Assembly: GCA_963666595.2 (NCBI GenBank)
Contig: CAXXSV010000002.1
Coordinates: 149,241-213,240, forward strand
Source of the DNA: Opitutales bacterium
Lineage (GTDB): Bacteria; Verrucomicrobiota; Verrucomicrobiia; Opitutales; CAXXNP01
Reading direction: 5' to 3'
DNA length: 64,000 bases
This document shows, piece by piece, positions 38,546 through 52,766 of the stretch (position 1 is its first letter; each line of letters starts with the position of its first letter). Under the pieces are notes generated by a model. It was given only the letters and a program-made list of their open reading frames with translations, was not told the DNA's origin and searched no databases. Both the position numbers and the translations under genes were made by a program.

Positions 38546-39652
38546 TCAGGCGGGGATCCCATTTTGCTTTAGGGGCAATTGAATAAAGAAGTTTGTGCCT
38601 TCTCCCGTTGCGGTTTTGAAGTGAATTGTACCGCCGTGGGCTTCAATAATGGATTTTGCGATGGCGGTTCCCAGTCCGGTTCCCCTGGTCTTTCCGTGGG
38701 TGACAAACGGCTCAAAGAAATGAGGGCGAATTTCTGGTGGAATGCCACCGGCATTATCGGCGATTTTCATCACCAGGTTGTCATCCCCTGAGCACTCTGC
38801 AGTAATTGAGATACGGCCTTCAGCGTCATCAAAAGCATCTATGGCGTTGCTTACCAGGTTTTGCAATACGCGCAGCAACTTGCTTTCCTCTCCCTCGAAA
38901 TTGATGCTGGGGACGGATATGCTCAGAGCGATCTTATCTTGATGAAAGTATGGAGCGTTCAGCTCCTTAAAGTTTTTGAGGAGTGTTTTTAAATTGAGGG
39001 TCGTGGTATTGAGGTTTTGTTGACCCCGCGAAAATTCGCTCAGTTCCTCCGCCATGCCGACCATGCGCTTGATTTGGTCCTCGATGGTATTGCATATTTT
39101 GTTAGTCTTTTTGTCGTCGTGCAGTTTGCTGATCATCTGGGTGCCGAGACTGATCAGGGTAAAGGGGTTTTTAAAATCGTGGATTATCGAGTTCATTATA
39201 TTGCCGACCATCGCCATTTTTTCCTGTTGTATCATGTCATCGATATAATGGCGGGTGGTGTCGTGCAGGTGGTCTACGACGCTTTGAAGGATACTTCCAA
39301 TTGGCCCCGGTGTCTTATTAATATATTCAATGAGCGCCTCCTTGGGAATCTTGGCCACTTCAACTGTGCCCCGTGATTCGGCCCGCAGGGCACGGGCGCT
39401 GTCGGTAACCAGGCCGATCTCGCCAAAAAATTCCCCCGCCTTCGAATAACTGACCGTACGGTAATCGCCTCCGGGAAGTTTTTTGCGAAAAGCAATCTCG
39501 CCCTCGAGGATAAGAAGTATACCGTCGGAAGCGCTCCCTTCCTCGAAAATTACGGAATCTGGTGGGTATTTATGGTGAACGGCTACATCCGCCAAGGCGG
39601 AAATATGTTCCGGTTTCACATTTTTAAAGAAGGGATGCGATGTTGTATCCAT
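38546..39652 (-). CDS. Cyclic-nucleotide-binding domain sensor histidine kinase
   Basis: cNMP domain (IFEEG...FFGEIGL....R), H-box HDFKNP, N-box NLVSNA, DNAGGI, GTGLG; start at MDTTS. Confidence 0.9.
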   Translation of the reverse strand: MDTTSHPFFKNVKPEHISALADVAVHHKYPPDSVIFEEGSASDGILLILEGEIAFRKKLPGGDYRTVSYSKAGEFFGEIGLVTDSARALRAESRGTVEVAKIPKEALIEYINKTPGPIGSILQSVVDHLHDTTRHYIDDMIQQEKMAMVGNIMNSIIHDFKNPFTLISLGTQMISKLHDDKKTNKICNTIEDQIKRMVGMAEELSEFSRGQQNLNTTTLNLKTLLKNFKELNAPYFHQDKIALSISVPSINFEGEESKLLRVLQNLVSNAIDAFDDAEGRISITAECSGDDNLVMKIADNAGGIPPEIRPHFFEPFVTHGKTRGTGLGTAIAKSIIEAHGGTIHFKTATGEGTNFFIQLPLKQNGIPA

Positions 39653-39819
39653 TTGATGCGGCCATAAATGATGTCTACGGGTATTCCTAATTGCGGCGCA
39701 AAGCAAAACAGTCAAGACATATCCGGACAGTCCTGAATAGCGGTTAAATAGGCAGCTCTTAAGCTATTAATTAGCAAATAGTTACAAAAATATCTTCAAT
39801 GAACAAGAAAAAAATGCAA

Positions 39820-47734: not shown

Positions 47735-48367
47735 ATGGAATTCCGCATCTATGAGTTGCCGCCCATCGGCACAAACGCCTATCTCCTGCTCGATTCTGAC
47801 CGAAAAGAGGCATTGCTCTTCGATGCTCCAATGAATGCCTGGACCGAAGCAGACAAGGCGTTGCGCGAATTGGACTGCCGGCTATCGGCCCTGCTGCTGA
47901 CTCATGGCCATTGGGATCACATTATTGATGTCGCTGAGATCACAAAACATGGAGTGTCCGTATATGCCCACCCGGACGATTTGAGCCTCATTGAAAATCC
48001 CTCAAAGATGGGGAGCTATTTCCAGCCGGGTTTAAAAATCCTGCCCGGTCGTGTGGACCACTTTGTCGAAAATGGCCAAAATCTAAGCCTGATTGGCCAG
48101 ACTATCGAAGTGCGCCACGTTCCTGGCCACAGCGATGGAAGTGTGCTCTTTTATATTAAGGAACTGGAATTGGCGATCTCCGGCGATGCCATATTTGCAG
48201 GCGGCGTCGGACGCACGGACCTCCCAAATGGCAGTATGGATGTGCTGTCGCAATCCATCCGCGAGAATATATATTCGCTCCCCGATTCCACGGTGCTCTT
48301 TCCAGGGCACGGACCCCGCACAACGGTCGGAGAAGAAATGCAAAACAATCCCTTTGTCCGCGCCTAG
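47735..48367 (+). CDS. MBL-fold metallo-hydrolase (glyoxalase II-like)
   Basis: THGHWDH, PGHS, GD..F, PGHG, NPF. Confidence 0.92.
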   Translation: MEFRIYELPPIGTNAYLLLDSDRKEALLFDAPMNAWTEADKALRELDCRLSALLLTHGHWDHIIDVAEITKHGVSVYAHPDDLSLIENPSKMGSYFQPGLKILPGRVDHFVENGQNLSLIGQTIEVRHVPGHSDGSVLFYIKELELAISGDAIFAGGVGRTDLPNGSMDVLSQSIRENIYSLPDSTVLFPGHGPRTTVGEEMQNNPFVRA

Positions 48368-48376
48368 ACAGAAATT

Positions 48377-49492
48377 ATGCCCGCGAATAACGACAATACT
48401 TTCATGCGCCGGGCGCTTCGCCTCGCCCGCAAAGGATGGGGCGCAACCCATCCGAACCCCATGGTCGGCGCCGTCATCGCGGATGGCGCAAAACTTTTAG
48501 CCGAGAGCTACCATGCCGTCGCTGGAAAACCTCATGCAGAAGTCGACGCCCTCAGCCTGCTCAAGCCTCCATTTTCCGGCGAGACCACACTCTATGTGAC
48601 GCTCGAGCCGTGCTCAACGTCCGGACGCACTCCTCCATGCACCGATGCCATTATCAAATCTGGCCTAAAACGGGTTGTCATCGGCGCAACCGACCCCAAT
48701 CCCCGACATACGGGTCGCGGCATTGACCTATTGCGCGAGGCCGGTATCACGGTGCGAACCGGCGTACTTGCCGGTGATTGCAAAGACCTGAATCTCATTT
48801 TCAACCACTGGATAACTCGACATACACCTATGATCGCCGGAAAGACCGCCGCTACACTTGACGGCCGTATCGCCACCCGTACTGGCGAATCTAAATGGAT
48901 CACCGGTAAACTAGCTCGCAAAGACGTAATGCGCTGGCGCCGTCTTTTCCCATCCGTCGCCGTGGGTTCCGGAACCGTGCTAGCCGATAACCCGAACTTG
49001 ACAAGTCGCATAGGCAAGAAGGTCGTTTGTCCAATACGGTTCATTTTTGACGGCAGACTGCGAACGGTCGGGGATCCGATGCCAAATGTTTATACAGATG
49101 AATATAAAAAGCGGACTATTGTAATTACCTACAAAACCGCCGACAAAATTCTTAAGTCACGGTTGGCAGATGCCGGCATTATTATCTGGGAGTTTTCAGG
49201 CGAAGATGACATTGAAGCATTCTCACATTTCCGGGAGCGCTGTCTGCAAGAGGAAATAACCGGAGTTTTATGCGAAGGCGGGTCCAACCTGCTCAGCTCA
49301 ATGCTCCTGACCCGGAACCTGGATTACCTGTTCAGCTACCGGGCCCCAAGGCTGTTTGCCGACGAACAGACGCTGCCGATGTTAAAGGGCGCTTTGGGTA
49401 AAGACATCGAACAGGCCCCTTATCTATCTGATGTAAAACACAGGATTTTAGGTAACGATCAGCTGATGCGTGGGTATATGGTTTATTCGTAA
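48377..49492 (+). CDS. ribD: Riboflavin biosynthesis deaminase/reductase
   Basis: PNPMVG, HAE, TLEPC...RTPPC, LDG.IA, EGG. Confidence 0.95.
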   Translation: MPANNDNTFMRRALRLARKGWGATHPNPMVGAVIADGAKLLAESYHAVAGKPHAEVDALSLLKPPFSGETTLYVTLEPCSTSGRTPPCTDAIIKSGLKRVVIGATDPNPRHTGRGIDLLREAGITVRTGVLAGDCKDLNLIFNHWITRHTPMIAGKTAATLDGRIATRTGESKWITGKLARKDVMRWRRLFPSVAVGSGTVLADNPNLTSRIGKKVVCPIRFIFDGRLRTVGDPMPNVYTDEYKKRTIVITYKTADKILKSRLADAGIIIWEFSGEDDIEAFSHFRERCLQEEITGVLCEGGSNLLSSMLLTRNLDYLFSYRAPRLFADEQTLPMLKGALGKDIEQAPYLSDVKHRILGNDQLMRGYMVYS

Positions 49493-49537
49493 AAAAATAG
49501 AGATTTTAAATGCTTGATATCTAAGTGGTTGCAGAAT

Positions 49538-49601
49538 TTGACAAAGAACCTAGCAGAAATATGATTGACAGTATAAGTATACAGTATAATTATACTGTAT
49601 A
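49538..49601 (+). promoter_or_regulatory. Tandem sigma70-like promoters with a perfect 24-bp palindromic operator
   Basis: TTGACA(49538)-N16-TATGAT(49560); TTGACA(49565)-N20-TATACT(49591); palindrome TATACAGTATAA|TTATACTGTATA at 49578-49601. Confidence 0.7.
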
Positions 49602-49679
49602 TATTACATAATATATCCAAATAATTACTTAGGGGAATGGTCAACATTCACTTAACGGGAATAAAACAAACTGCCAATC

Positions 49680-51227
49680 ATGCTGACAAGTAAGCAAATA
49701 CTGGATGCGACCAAAATATCACGAGCCACATTGAACAATTATATAGGCTTGGGTGTTTTACCGAAACCGGTAATCCGCAAACCCGGTCCCGGTGAAGGTC
49801 GAGCCAGACAGATTGGTTACTTTCCTGACGAATGTTTGGCTATAGTTAGACTAATACAGAAACTAAAAAAAGAGGGATTAAGCATGAGTGAGATTGTGAA
49901 CCGTATAAACCAAGAAGAACAGAACATGGATCAGGCTTCATTGTCAGACAGAATGATTGAAGAAAATATTGAAGTCGAAACACCAGAGACGAATGGGAAA
50001 TCAAGAAAAACCGGAAAGAAAAAAGAGATGACCCTGAGCGACCTCAATCTTCCAATTTGCATGGTCAATTATAACTTCGAAGTGGAATGGTCAAATTCGC
50101 AATTTAACAAGGAGATTCTTGGAGATGAGAGCACAATGAGTCCGGAACTCGAAGATAGGGACCTCCTTCAATTATTACTCGATTCTCCAAATTGGGATAG
50201 CTCTAGGGACTGGGGAGAGTTGCTGAATTTTCATTTGGGAATAGCCAAGAACCGTTTATCTAAAGCCGCGCTCGACCGTCTTTTATCGAAGGCGGAAATT
50301 AGCAAGATAAGGATACTTAAAGGTTTGTATGAACAAGTGGATGTAATTGAGCTTGAGCCGATCATCCAAGCATCATTTTTACTGAAACTGTCCGAAGATG
50401 GTGAAAATTCTTATCGTGTATTTGCCTCAACTTATCGCGAACAAATTATATTTATATATACTCCTGAATCGTCCGACCAAGATAGCTTGCTGAATTTTCT
50501 GGCCGAACGAGATCAAGTGATACGGGACTTGATTCGCAAAAGGCCTCCCGTCATAACATCAGTTTGTGTATTAGTGGCAGACCTTCAGAACTCGATGAAA
50601 ATATCGGCTGAATTGCCTCCAAATGAATATTTCGAACTGATAAACGATTTATGGATATCAGTTCAACCGGTCTTTAAAAAATATTACGGCACCCATGGCA
50701 CCCATGGCAGGCATGCAGGAGACGGCATGGTTTACTACTTTTTTCCGCAGCCGGACCAAAATTACATTCTAAATGCGTTGATATGCGCGCAAGAAATAAA
50801 AAATGCGGTAAGAGGGGTCAGTAAGGAATGGCAACTAAGAAAAAACTGGCCCACAGAGCTCTATTTGAATATCGGCATAAATGAGGGCCGGGAATGGCTT
50901 GGCACTTACGTGACTCCAACCCAAGTGGAGTTTACAGTGCTGGGAGACACTATAAATTATGCAGGCCGTTTGAGCGACTTTGCGCGATTTGGTTCCATCT
51001 GGGTCACGAAAAACTTACTGAGCGCGCTCGATAAAGAAGAATGCGGCCAGATAATGTTTGGGATCCATCGTGAAAACAACGAAGGCCGGAAAATCCTTGT
51101 CCCGACAAGCTACTCGCGCATCTTAAACCTGGTTGACTTGACCAGCGACAAGTTTGAAAAATTCAATGATGTTGCGAATTTAGCGGTTACTGAAATTATT
51201 GAAGTTTTTCTGCCCATAGAAAAATAA
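49680..51227 (+). CDS. MerR-type HTH / PAS-like / class III adenylate-guanylate cyclase fusion protein
   Basis: N-terminal ISRATLNNYIGLGVLP...IQKLKKEGLSMSEI (MerR-like); LPICMVNYNFEVEWSN (PAS-like start); cyclase motifs VLVADLQNS, AGDG, IGINEG, FTVLGDTINYAGRL. Confidence 0.85.
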   Translation: MLTSKQILDATKISRATLNNYIGLGVLPKPVIRKPGPGEGRARQIGYFPDECLAIVRLIQKLKKEGLSMSEIVNRINQEEQNMDQASLSDRMIEENIEVETPETNGKSRKTGKKKEMTLSDLNLPICMVNYNFEVEWSNSQFNKEILGDESTMSPELEDRDLLQLLLDSPNWDSSRDWGELLNFHLGIAKNRLSKAALDRLLSKAEISKIRILKGLYEQVDVIELEPIIQASFLLKLSEDGENSYRVFASTYREQIIFIYTPESSDQDSLLNFLAERDQVIRDLIRKRPPVITSVCVLVADLQNSMKISAELPPNEYFELINDLWISVQPVFKKYYGTHGTHGRHAGDGMVYYFFPQPDQNYILNALICAQEIKNAVRGVSKEWQLRKNWPTELYLNIGINEGREWLGTYVTPTQVEFTVLGDTINYAGRLSDFARFGSIWVTKNLLSALDKEECGQIMFGIHRENNEGRKILVPTSYSRILNLVDLTSDKFEKFNDVANLAVTEIIEVFLPIEK

Positions 51228-51289
51228 AGACCGAAGAGCGGTCTGCATTATCGGCTGAAAATCCGCGACGCTTCGCGCACTTTATACCA

Positions 51290-51892
51290 ATGCGCCTCTA
51301 TCTTGCCACGGGGAATCCTCACAAAGTTGACGAATTGGTCCGGATGATTGAGACCGCCAAGCTCGATATCGAGGTATTTCCCGGCAACAAAATTTGTAAT
51401 TCACCTCCCTGCGAGGAAACCGGTGTCACTTTTCAGGCCAATGCCTTTCTTAAAGCCCGTACCCTTCGGCCGCTGATTCCACCGGAAGACTGGGTGCTGG
51501 CCGACGACAGCGGCTTGGAAGTTGATGCCCTTAACGGAAGACCCGGCATACGCTCCGCTCGCTACGCGGGAGAGGATGCTTTGGACGCCGACAATATCCG
51601 GAAATTGCTGAAAGAGCTTGACGGTGTTCCGGACGCGGAGCGCACGGCCCGTTTTATTTGCTTCCTCGCACTCATTGGGCCAGAAGAGCGCGTTCTAACC
51701 TTTCAAGGTACCTGCAAAGGAAAAATCGTCAAAGAACCGCGTGGTTTAGAAGGCTTCGGTTACGATCCGCTGTTTCAACCGGAGGGTTATGATAAAACCT
51801 TCGCAGAACTGGGCCCATCGGTCAAAGACACCGAAAGCCATCGCGCGCGTGCCCTGACTGGCCTTCTCGATTGGCTGAAGTTACAAAGATAG
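51290..51892 (+). CDS. rdgB: Non-canonical purine NTP pyrophosphatase (RdgB/HAM1)
   Basis: ATGNPHK, ADDSGL, SARY, GFGYDP, SHR. Confidence 0.95.
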   Translation: MRLYLATGNPHKVDELVRMIETAKLDIEVFPGNKICNSPPCEETGVTFQANAFLKARTLRPLIPPEDWVLADDSGLEVDALNGRPGIRSARYAGEDALDADNIRKLLKELDGVPDAERTARFICFLALIGPEERVLTFQGTCKGKIVKEPRGLEGFGYDPLFQPEGYDKTFAELGPSVKDTESHRARALTGLLDWLKLQR

Positions 51893-51896
51893 ACGG

Positions 51897-52766
51897 TTAA
51901 ATCGACTCGAGCTTTCGGCAGACTTCATCTATTATAAAGTCTGGAGTAGAAGCCCCCGCCGTGACGCCAACGGTGCTGTATTTTTTCAAAGACTTCGGGT
52001 CGACTTCTGCAGCCGTTTCGATGTGAAAGGTGGGCAAGTCCTGGAGACCTGCTAGCTTGGCCAGTTTGCGGGTGTTGGCCGAGTGGTGCCCTCCGATTAC
52101 CACTATGGCCTCTGCTCCCTCTTTAGCAAGATATGTAACGCCATCCTGACGCTCTTTGGTAGCTCCGCAGATAGTGTCAAAGACCAGCAGATGAGGATAT
52201 TTTTCTTTGAGGCGTGCTGAAAGCTCCACGAATTCGTGGGTGAACATAGTCGATTGCGAGACCATGATCACTTTCTCACCCAGCGGAGGCAGGTTGTCGA
52301 TGTCCTCTTTGGTTTGGACGACATGTCCTTTGCCTTCGGTATAACCCAGAAGGCCGATAGCTTCGGGATGTTCGGGATCGCCGAAAATGACCGTTTCGTA
52401 TCCCCTTTTAGTATGGCCCCGGATTTTTCCGGCGATGATACCCACGTCCGGGCAAGTGGCGTCACGGAATTCCAGGTCGAGGTTCTTCAGATATTTGCGC
52501 CTTTCCGGCGAAATGCCGTGAGCGCGCACGACCATGACCGAATTTTTCTTATCTGCATTATCAATTGCGAGTTCTGACTTGCTTTGGTAATCGCCGACTT
52601 CACGGATGCCCTCGTCTTCAAGCTTTTCCATCATCTGTTTATTGTGTATGAGCGGGCCGTCGGTATAGACAGGGTGTTTGCCTTTACCGGTATATTCCCG
52701 GGCGATATTGATAGCGCGTTCGACGCCCCAACAAAAGCCGGCGCTTTCTGCTCTGATTACTTTCAC
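51897..52766 (-). CDS. ispH: 4-hydroxy-3-methylbut-2-enyl diphosphate reductase
   Basis: GFCWGV, IHN, RAHG, DATCP, HPE, TICGAT, SANT, TAGASTP. Confidence 0.95.
   Translation of the reverse strand: MKVIRAESAGFCWGVERAINIAREYTGKGKHPVYTDGPLIHNKQMMEKLEDEGIREVGDYQSKSELAIDNADKKNSVMVVRAHGISPERRKYLKNLDLEFRDATCPDVGIIAGKIRGHTKRGYETVIFGDPEHPEAIGLLGYTEGKGHVVQTKEDIDNLPPLGEKVIMVSQSTMFTHEFVELSARLKEKYPHLLVFDTICGATKERQDGVTYLAKEGAEAIVVIGGHHSANTRKLAKLAGLQDLPTFHIETAAEVDPKSLKKYSTVGVTAGASTPDFIIDEVCRKLESI

Follow-up and report, generated by a model that had tools for sequence, protein, structure and literature searches.

A predicted nucleotide cyclase of probable horizontal origin, with a MerR-type head and a conserved operator candidate in its own promoter

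Bacterial class III nucleotide cyclases are known with many sensor domains, and one encoded in a 64,000-nucleotide stretch of an Opitutales bacterium genome (contig CAXXSV010000002.1, positions 149,241 to 213,240; hereafter the window) bears a predicted DNA-binding head as well, which raises the question of which DNA such an enzyme would bind. An earlier note, made from the letters of the window, had read its gene, at 49680-51227, as an acquired and unusual regulator in which a MerR-type helix-turn-helix (HTH) is fused to a PAS-like segment and a cyclase. This idea proved right in outline, in that the domains, the horizontal origin and, by comparative genomics, the DNA binding gained support, whereas the rarity did not. 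In our reading, the product is a soluble signalling protein of the one-component type, a cyclase that would sense a ligand and regulate its own gene, and this gene would have been acquired horizontally along with its promoter; we put the probability of this reading at roughly 0.55.

The principal new result of the analysis is the operator. A palindromic unit, TTAKACWGTMTAA, clusters in the promoters of family genes, and upstream of the window's gene the following features were placed:

49561..49605, no strand assigned: operator array of three 19-bp palindromic units (consensus TAnTTAKACWGTMTAAnTA) with centres at 49570, 49583 and 49596, 13 bp apart
49565..49570, plus strand: -35-like hexamer TTGACA of the proposed promoter, from a promoter scan and the sequence
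49591..49596, plus strand: proposed -10-like hexamer TATACT, 20 bp past TTGACA, read by analogy with gammaproteobacterial loci

Within the array, beside TTGACA, lies a perfect 24-bp palindrome (49578-49601). The upstream neighbour, ribD, reads in the same direction as the cyclase gene, so the spacer at 49493-49679 serves the cyclase gene only.

To what extent is this unit a property of the family? Words were counted in the 200 nt upstream of 80 genes (79 related loci plus the window), and the remaining 631 kb of these loci supplied the expectation. CTGTCTA was found in 53 of the 80 upstream regions against 1.1 expected, TGTCTAA in 49 and CAGTATA in 45. The flanks of the ACWGT core are symmetric, at least one core is present in 74 of the 80 regions and at least two in 61, and the commonest centre-to-centre spacing of units is 13 bp (21 of 108 intervals). 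We trained a weight matrix, anchored on ACWGT, on the related genome loci with the window left out and ran it over the window's genome of 2,632,632 bp, where it returned 29 hits of at least 12 bits. The units at 49596 (22.8 bits) and 49583 (22.5 bits) rank first and second among them; the third-best site, at 17.7 bits, lies elsewhere, and the remaining unit of the array, at 49570, scores 14.3 bits and ranks tenth. On the training loci, where the count is circular, the matrix finds an upstream hit in 64 of 70 and two or more in 49 of 70.

An independent set was drawn from 80 metagenome loci, less 17 that lacked the HTH signature in the DNA (11), had under 150 nt of upstream sequence (5) or lacked a start codon (1). 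Among the 63 loci left, 49 have at least one upstream hit and 32 at least two, and the matrix hits number 98 in 12,550 nt of upstream sequence compared with 9 in 372,405 nt elsewhere. When these upstream regions (62 in this test) were shuffled 100 times with dinucleotides preserved, the hits averaged 1.0 and never exceeded 4, whereas the real sequences have 93, a figure below 98 since the test scored only sites wholly inside the 200 nt; base composition therefore does not explain the operator units. For the window's own upstream region the shuffle mean was 0.06, and three units are observed.

The neighbourhoods of 81 loci were surveyed for a conserved operon partner, and none was found among the neighbours; the largest cluster of neighbouring genes occurs in 13 of the 81 loci and tracks lineage synteny only. 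The cyclase gene is thus the sole constant companion of the operator. Because of this, and because the recognition helix is invariant in the family and the best sites in the window's genome are unique to this promoter, the protein itself is likely to be the operator binder, and the DNA binding proposed in the earlier note gains comparative support from a conserved site in the gene's own promoter.

The geometry of the units relative to the promoter was also compared. Many related loci have an exact TTGACA whose distance to the operator units is fixed. Counted from its first T, the unit centres of the window lie at +5, +18 and +31, those of gammaproteobacterial loci place a unit at +16 to +19, with TATACT about 18 bp after TTGACA and the unit in the spacer, and those of betaproteobacterial loci lie at -14 and +40, 54 bp apart. 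In betaproteobacterial loci such as L009, L010, L030, L035 and L039 the fixed pair of units, at about -110 and about -56 from the start codon, brackets CTTGACAA, and an imperfect 22-bp palindrome, TGTCTAA-N8-TTAGACA, stands between the paired units; this layout suggests two cooperating dimers.

We also looked at sites away from the gene. In five complete genomes carrying a relative, the exact 13-mer has five sites, spread over three of the genomes, against none for the reversed control; two of the five belong to the promoter of the gene itself, and the other three occur singly in intergenic regions away from it. With one mismatch allowed, the same complete genomes hold no excess (29 sites against 51 for the control). 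In the window's genome, four of the five next-best sites (16-17.7 bits) are intergenic, as expected for an AT-rich motif. A wider regulon is not claimed. Two Pseudohongiella genomes do have single perfect units of 21-25 bits between other genes (L090:1507, L093:1507 and L091:1507), one of them between a methylisocitrate-lyase-like gene and a 460-aa open reading frame (ORF) and another preceding a gene whose N-terminus resembles PAPS reductase as judged by eye; these are possible extra targets.

What kind of protein would occupy such an operator? The gene is a single ORF with an ATG start, and its parts are as follows:

49680..51227, plus strand: coding sequence of the MerR-HTH / PAS-like ligand-binding domain / class IIIb cyclase protein, 515 aa
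49680..49940, plus strand: MerR-type winged HTH, residues 1-87, from Pfam MerR_1, invariant columns and the model
49941..50018, plus strand: flexible charged linker, residues 88-113, varying in length and sequence among relatives
50019..50555, plus strand: enlarged PAS-like ligand-binding domain of the MmyB/MltR kind, residues 114-292, with two conserved helices at its end that lead into the cyclase
50556..51206, plus strand: class IIIb nucleotide cyclase domain, residues 293-509, with D301, R344, D348, T419, N426 and R430

The domain order, with a charged linker after the HTH, had been proposed from the letters and was borne out by Pfam, the family alignment and the predicted structure; the AlphaFold2 model of the whole protein, built on 46 relatives, has a mean predicted local distance difference test score (pLDDT) of 85.2 and a predicted template modelling score (pTM) of 0.63. 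NCBIfam holds no family that matches the 515-aa protein at E<=1. The highest 19-residue Kyte-Doolittle mean is 1.22, so the cyclase protein has no membrane segment, as had been stated.

On Pfam MerR_1 the head scores 20.7 bits over residues 3-75, just short of the cut-off of 21.6. Of the 46 aligned family members, MerR_1 recognises 41 at E<=0.01 (best 8.9e-12) and PF00376 recognises 16 as well, while HTH_26, of the Cro/C1 type, is matched by 1 of 46. The model places helices at residues 4-11, 15-24, 51-64 and 69-87 and a two-strand wing at 31-48, a predicted layout that fits a MerR-type winged HTH, and residues S14, R15, T17, L18, N20 and Y21 of the recognition helix are invariant in the family. 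The charged linker corresponds to residues 84-113, which are disordered in the model (pLDDT<50) and form a gappy, unconserved block in the alignment.

Modelled alone, the sensor domain (residues 114-292) reaches a pLDDT of 84 and a pTM of 0.83, and its layout of two strands, five helices and three strands is that of a PAS core with an enlarged helical insert. The matches returned by Foldseek are PAS domains, and the best match in VIA-align is 3pxp_A (MltR), with Z 10.0 and a root-mean-square deviation of 3.7 A over 151 residues, the runner-up scoring 8.2. The profile PF17765 (MLTR_LBD) recognises 15 of 40 relatives, with a best E of 3.6e-6, and finds no match in the window's copy at E<=1; as a lead, a protein-atlas look-up shows nearby clusters carrying MLTR_LBD. 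The PAS-like assignment of the earlier note therefore stands as to fold and can be made more specific, for the domain appears from its model and from the profile matches of its relatives to be of the MmyB/MltR ligand-binding kind.

3pxp is MltR (Caur_2278), an MmyB-like regulator with an Xre-type HTH and a PAS-related ligand-binding domain, and in the crystal its buried pocket was occupied by a fatty acid, which was modelled as myristic acid (PMC3406030). MltR resembles the window protein in being a one-component protein whose HTH precedes an enlarged, PAS-related domain for ligand binding, and differs in its Xre-type head and in having no enzymatic output domain, whereas the window's N-terminus matches MerR_1/MerR; the MmyB-like family is described there as predominantly actinomycete, and the window's family is mostly proteobacterial (PMC3406030).

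The cyclase domain matches PF00211 (Guanylate_cyc) over residues 293-453 with 32.8 bits against a cut-off of 21.9. Against the PDB, the family profile recovers CyaB (3r5g, 7.3e-18), Cya2 (2w01, 8.8e-15), CyaC (1wc0/1wc1) and photoactivated cyclases, with E values from 7.3e-18 to 3.4e-11, and Foldseek returns Cya2, CyaC and CyaB at E 2.6e-12 to 1e-11 with TM-scores on the target of 0.75-0.83, at 16-20% identity in the alignments. The motifs named in the earlier note are in place and align with the catalytic positions of solved class III cyclases: VADL (D301), GRHAGDG (R344, D348), FTVLGD (T419) and TINYAGR (N426, R430), with the metal-binding D301 and D348 lining up with the Asp residues of CyaB and Cya2. 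The adenine-specifying pair of class IIIb is Lys plus a Thr that replaces Asp; the window protein has the class IIIb Thr (T419) and, at the Lys position, R344. That Arg had been singled out from the letters and is indeed present, but it is peculiar to the window's small clade.

A residue census was made of 181 fetched relatives of 470-600 aa, a mixture of best word-search matches and 50% representatives and so not a natural census. The two metal positions hold Asp in 148 and 151 of the 181, the transition-state positions hold Asn in 145 and Arg in 150, and the substrate position holds Lys in 146, Arg in 20 and other residues in 15. All of D, D, N, R and K/R are kept in 140 of the 181 full-length relatives, and every catalytic position is kept in the window protein, its three fetched close relatives and 64 of 69 full-length genome loci. 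At least one of these residues is lost in 41 relatives, whose identity to the window protein is 26-48%; the S-R-T-L-N-Y recognition helix is retained in 39 of the 41. The invariant columns of the family are S14, L18, Y21, P30, G66, W137, N139, F354, G438 and G461, with no catalytic residue among them. In a deep branch (relatives P0136-P0247; loci L019, L059 and L073) the catalytic residues are gone and the HTH signature and full architecture are kept, and upstream of these three loci, which have degenerate transition-state residues, no operator unit was found.

How, then, might the parts work together? Class III cyclases are active only as dimers and pair through their cyclase domains. In the mechanism that we propose, two chains would pair via these domains, and probably via the PAS-like domains as well, which would unite two MerR-type heads on flexible linkers of about 30 residues. 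The heads, as the comparative genomics suggests, would bind the palindromic units over the -35 and -10 elements of the gene's own promoter, by which the protein would set its own level. The MmyB/MltR-type pocket would take a small, probably amphipathic ligand, which may tune the cyclase through the two conserved helices before the catalytic domain, and the product, most likely cyclic AMP (cAMP), would be read by proteins encoded elsewhere in the genome that bind cyclic nucleoside monophosphates (cNMPs). A bolder extension, which we regard as improbable, would make the operator a cofactor too: tandem units would assemble chains into active dimers or oligomers, so that promoter occupancy and ligand together switch on cAMP synthesis. 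Such assembly is conceivable because the cyclases act only as dimers, the heads lack a dimerising coiled coil, the linkers are flexible and the units lie 13 bp apart, or 54 bp in the betaproteobacterial loci. If it took place, DNA would act as the template of second-messenger synthesis, and the protein would report on the dosage of its own gene or on the chromosomal state, and the branch with dead sites would retain only the DNA-binding half of the device.

Several observations weigh against an autoregulated, ligand-sensing cyclase. The window protein's own MerR_1 score falls slightly under the Pfam cut-off, the N-terminal profile finds weak MerR matches in the PDB (E 0.05-0.15) mixed with spurious designed repeat proteins, and the long dimerising antiparallel coiled coil that defines MerR regulators is absent, the last helix of the head ending at residue 87 in the model. 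The cyclase domain is divergent at its 32.8 bits, with an Arg where most relatives have Lys, and directly before R344 the window alone has a three-residue duplication (GTHGTH, residues 338-343, about 50692-50709), where the closest relative shown (P0004) has a single GTH and the pLDDT of the model is 72-73. The catalytically degenerate relatives keep the HTH all the same, so that within the family catalysis is not what is conserved best. As to the operator, the matrix counts on the training loci are circular, and the independent evidence comes from the window and the metagenome set, whose lineages overlap with those of the training set; the loci are therefore not independent events, yet the proteins are 40-50% identical between clades and the flanking genes differ. 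The placement of units relative to TTGACA differs among clades, and negative and positive regulation are not distinguishable from sequence. Finally, no experimental work on any family member was found in the full-text literature outside subscription journals.

The degenerate relatives bear most directly on the main rival, in which the protein is essentially a transcription factor that produces no second messenger, its cyclase fold being a regulatory module for dimerisation, nucleotide binding or both. Retention of the recognition helix in nearly all of the 41 relatives lacking at least one metal Asp, Asn or Arg would follow from it, as would the want of catalytic residues among the invariant columns, and the low Pfam cyclase score, the Arg at the Lys position and the adjoining GTH duplication point the same way. 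Without selection for catalysis, however, one would not expect the catalytic set to persist in the window protein, in its three close relatives, in 140 of 181 relatives and in 64 of 69 genome loci, and the degenerate loci L019, L059 and L073, being without the upstream operator, may form a functionally separate branch; on balance we judge this rival unlikely, though it is the one to be taken most seriously. The operator evidence in turn could be read as the work of a different regulator or as an element of promoter architecture, with the HTH having another DNA target or none. For a dimer of the MerR type, a core palindrome of 13 bp is short, and the single exact units that two related genomes have between other genes (L090, L091 and L093) would suit such an arrangement. 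The site nevertheless accompanies the gene in Alpha-, Beta-, Gamma- and Zetaproteobacteria, in Desulfobacterota and in this genome, with no other gene linked to it; a global regulator of the host would be expected to have many sites, whereas the two best in the window's genome are unique to this promoter, and it would not be expected to recognise an imported promoter. We find it quite doubtful for these reasons.

A defence role was considered as well, in which the protein would be a Pycsar-like cyclase making a pyrimidine cyclic nucleotide upon phage infection. The PycC models of PADLOC match the cyclase domain (33.6 bits, E 6.2e-9), and the Arg at the substrate position is unusual; the PycC score, however, equals the generic Pfam cyclase score and so speaks of class III homology only, no effector gene adjoins the cyclase gene, which ribD and rdgB flank, and none is conserved in the 81 loci. 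Nor, to our knowledge, are an HTH, a ligand-binding domain or an auto-operator features of Pycsar. With its PycC match at the generic class III level and a neighbourhood without an effector, we rejected this reading, which we hold to be very improbable.

Returning to the ligand-sensing cyclase, we asked where its gene came from. The gene has a GC content of 42.2% and its 187-bp upstream spacer one of 28.3%, compared with 53.4% in ribD, 53.9% in rdgB and 51.6% in the window, and GC at third codon positions (GC3) is 0.44 in the cyclase gene and 0.56-0.57 in four neighbouring genes; the spot counts that had first drawn attention to the composition were exact (21/60 at 49861-49920 and 35/60 at 48601-48660). 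The host is probably verrucomicrobial, as the IspH encoded nearby has its best named relatives, at 71-74% identity, in Opitutales, Puniceicoccaceae and Opitutus. In 40 relatives of the window's genome, 1 from the same family and 39 from the same order, no full-length match was found, 7 of them having matches to the cyclase domain only at 25-29% identity, and a search of 300 other genomes of the phylum, 293 of them of high quality, yielded nothing that matches residues 1-290 at E<=1e-8. The low GC content and the failure to find the gene in the genomes searched support a horizontal acquisition, as the earlier note had held for the gene, and one that included its promoter. A FastTree tree sets the window's clade on a long stem within the proteobacterial crown. 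An approximately unbiased (AU) test did not reject a single clade of all 29 proteobacterial rows that excludes the window (p 0.655), so the nesting seen with FastTree is tentative and no donor is assigned. The 39 same-order relatives each belong to a different family and have genomes of 0.8 to 5.1 Mb, and the one genome sampled from the same family measures 7.2 Mb, compared with 2.6 Mb for the genome of the window; this sparse sampling of the lineage weakens statements on the timing of the gain.

The architecture is by no means confined to this genome. Full-length relatives occur in at least 591 species genomes, mostly of Pseudomonadota (591 of 595 pattern matches listed, on contigs with one genome per species), and some members are already annotated automatically as 'class 3 adenylate cyclase/DNA-binding transcriptional MerR regulator', so the rarity implied by the earlier note did not hold. 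Its companion statement, that no characterised protein with this architecture was known, was upheld by searches of the same full-text literature, which found none and in which no described case was found of a cyclase that itself binds DNA at a defined conserved site. Of the 8000 candidates that the word-indexed search scored, 2373 reached E<=1e-3; the closest relatives are 85, 85 and 80% identical (P0002-P0004), and the rest of the best 120 listed are at most 50% identical and nearly all full length. An exhaustive search of representatives gave 165 clusters at E<=1e-30, not all of them full length, with full-length members down to about 28% identity, and relatives from the metagenome scan are all at most 56% identical to the window protein. 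Nearly all of the 80 loci kept come from metagenome-assembled genomes of Pseudomonadota, with one cultured carrier, Methylobacillus sp. MM3 (L076).

Set beside known systems, the protein shares pieces with several. CyaB (P. aeruginosa, 3r5g), CyaC (Spirulina, 1wc0/1wc1), Cya2 (Synechocystis, 2w01) and bPAC/OaPAC have the same fold, both metal Asp residues, the class IIIb Thr and the Asn/Arg pair, and in bPAC, as in the window protein, the sensor domain precedes the cyclase via helices; none of them has a DNA-binding domain, and the window protein differs in having Arg for the substrate Lys. With MerR, CueR, SoxR, BmrR and MtaN it appears to have in common an N-terminal helix-turn-helix, a wing and a second helix pair, together with a candidate palindromic operator inside the promoter. 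MerR promoters typically have a long -35/-10 spacer of 19-20 bp; the window's candidate hexamers are 20 bp apart. In contrast to the MerR family, the window protein has a disordered linker in place of the long antiparallel coiled coil, its effector part is PAS plus cyclase and not a short C-terminal metal or drug pocket, and its operator units stand in tandem at 13 bp with a placement that varies among clades. The mycobacterial proteins Rv0386, Rv1358 and Rv2488c are multidomain cyclases with a C-terminal LuxR-type HTH. They likewise join a class III cyclase and an HTH in one polypeptide, but in the opposite domain order, with a LuxR-type HTH, a large ATPase/TPR region between and no PAS-like ligand-binding domain, and we know of no conserved auto-operator in them. 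EL222 (3p7n) and VqmA (7dwm) combine a PAS-type sensor and an HTH in one chain, and their folds match the sensor domain with Z 6.6 and 7.2, values that amount to generic PAS similarity; in both the domains follow in the opposite order, and an enzymatic output is lacking.

What was a bare domain fusion has become a testable system: the operator is delimited to 45 bp, the recognition helix is predicted, the ligand pocket is of the type found filled with a fatty acid in MltR, the only relative of it with a solved structure, and the loss of the catalytic centre in one branch provides a natural control. The carriers include many groundwater, soil and marine Pseudomonadota, and the family is large, so its function bears on cAMP wiring in many uncultured bacteria. 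A gene that travels with its promoter and operator would be a self-contained unit, which may explain its uptake by a distant, probably verrucomicrobial host, and a compact ligand-to-cAMP module with built-in feedback could serve as a part for synthetic biology.

Around the gene, the flanking genes encode RibD and a Ham1/RdgB protein, so that it does stand alone between ribD and rdgB as had been noted. The arrangement is no assembly artefact, because contigs from runs of two studies cover 48000-52500 with no difference, one of the runs possibly being the window's own source. Rfam holds no RNA element at E<=1 in 49300-51400, hence no known riboswitch or leader there. Immediately 3' of the stop codon is a hairpin:

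51228..51244, no strand assigned: hairpin AGACCGAAGAGCGGTCT, without a T-run on the plus strand, a putative terminator

Within rdgB, at 51551-51775, other contigs from the same runs match the short ends only, and the 177 bases between are of equal length and diverged, which suggests a co-occurring strain or relative with a different rdgB. The window's genome encodes four class III cyclase domains and has eight cNMP_binding matches. Among the latter is a 389-aa protein at 38546-39715 on the minus strand, with cNMP-binding, HisKA and HATPase_c domains, a cyclic-nucleotide-binding histidine kinase that is a possible reader of the cyclase product.

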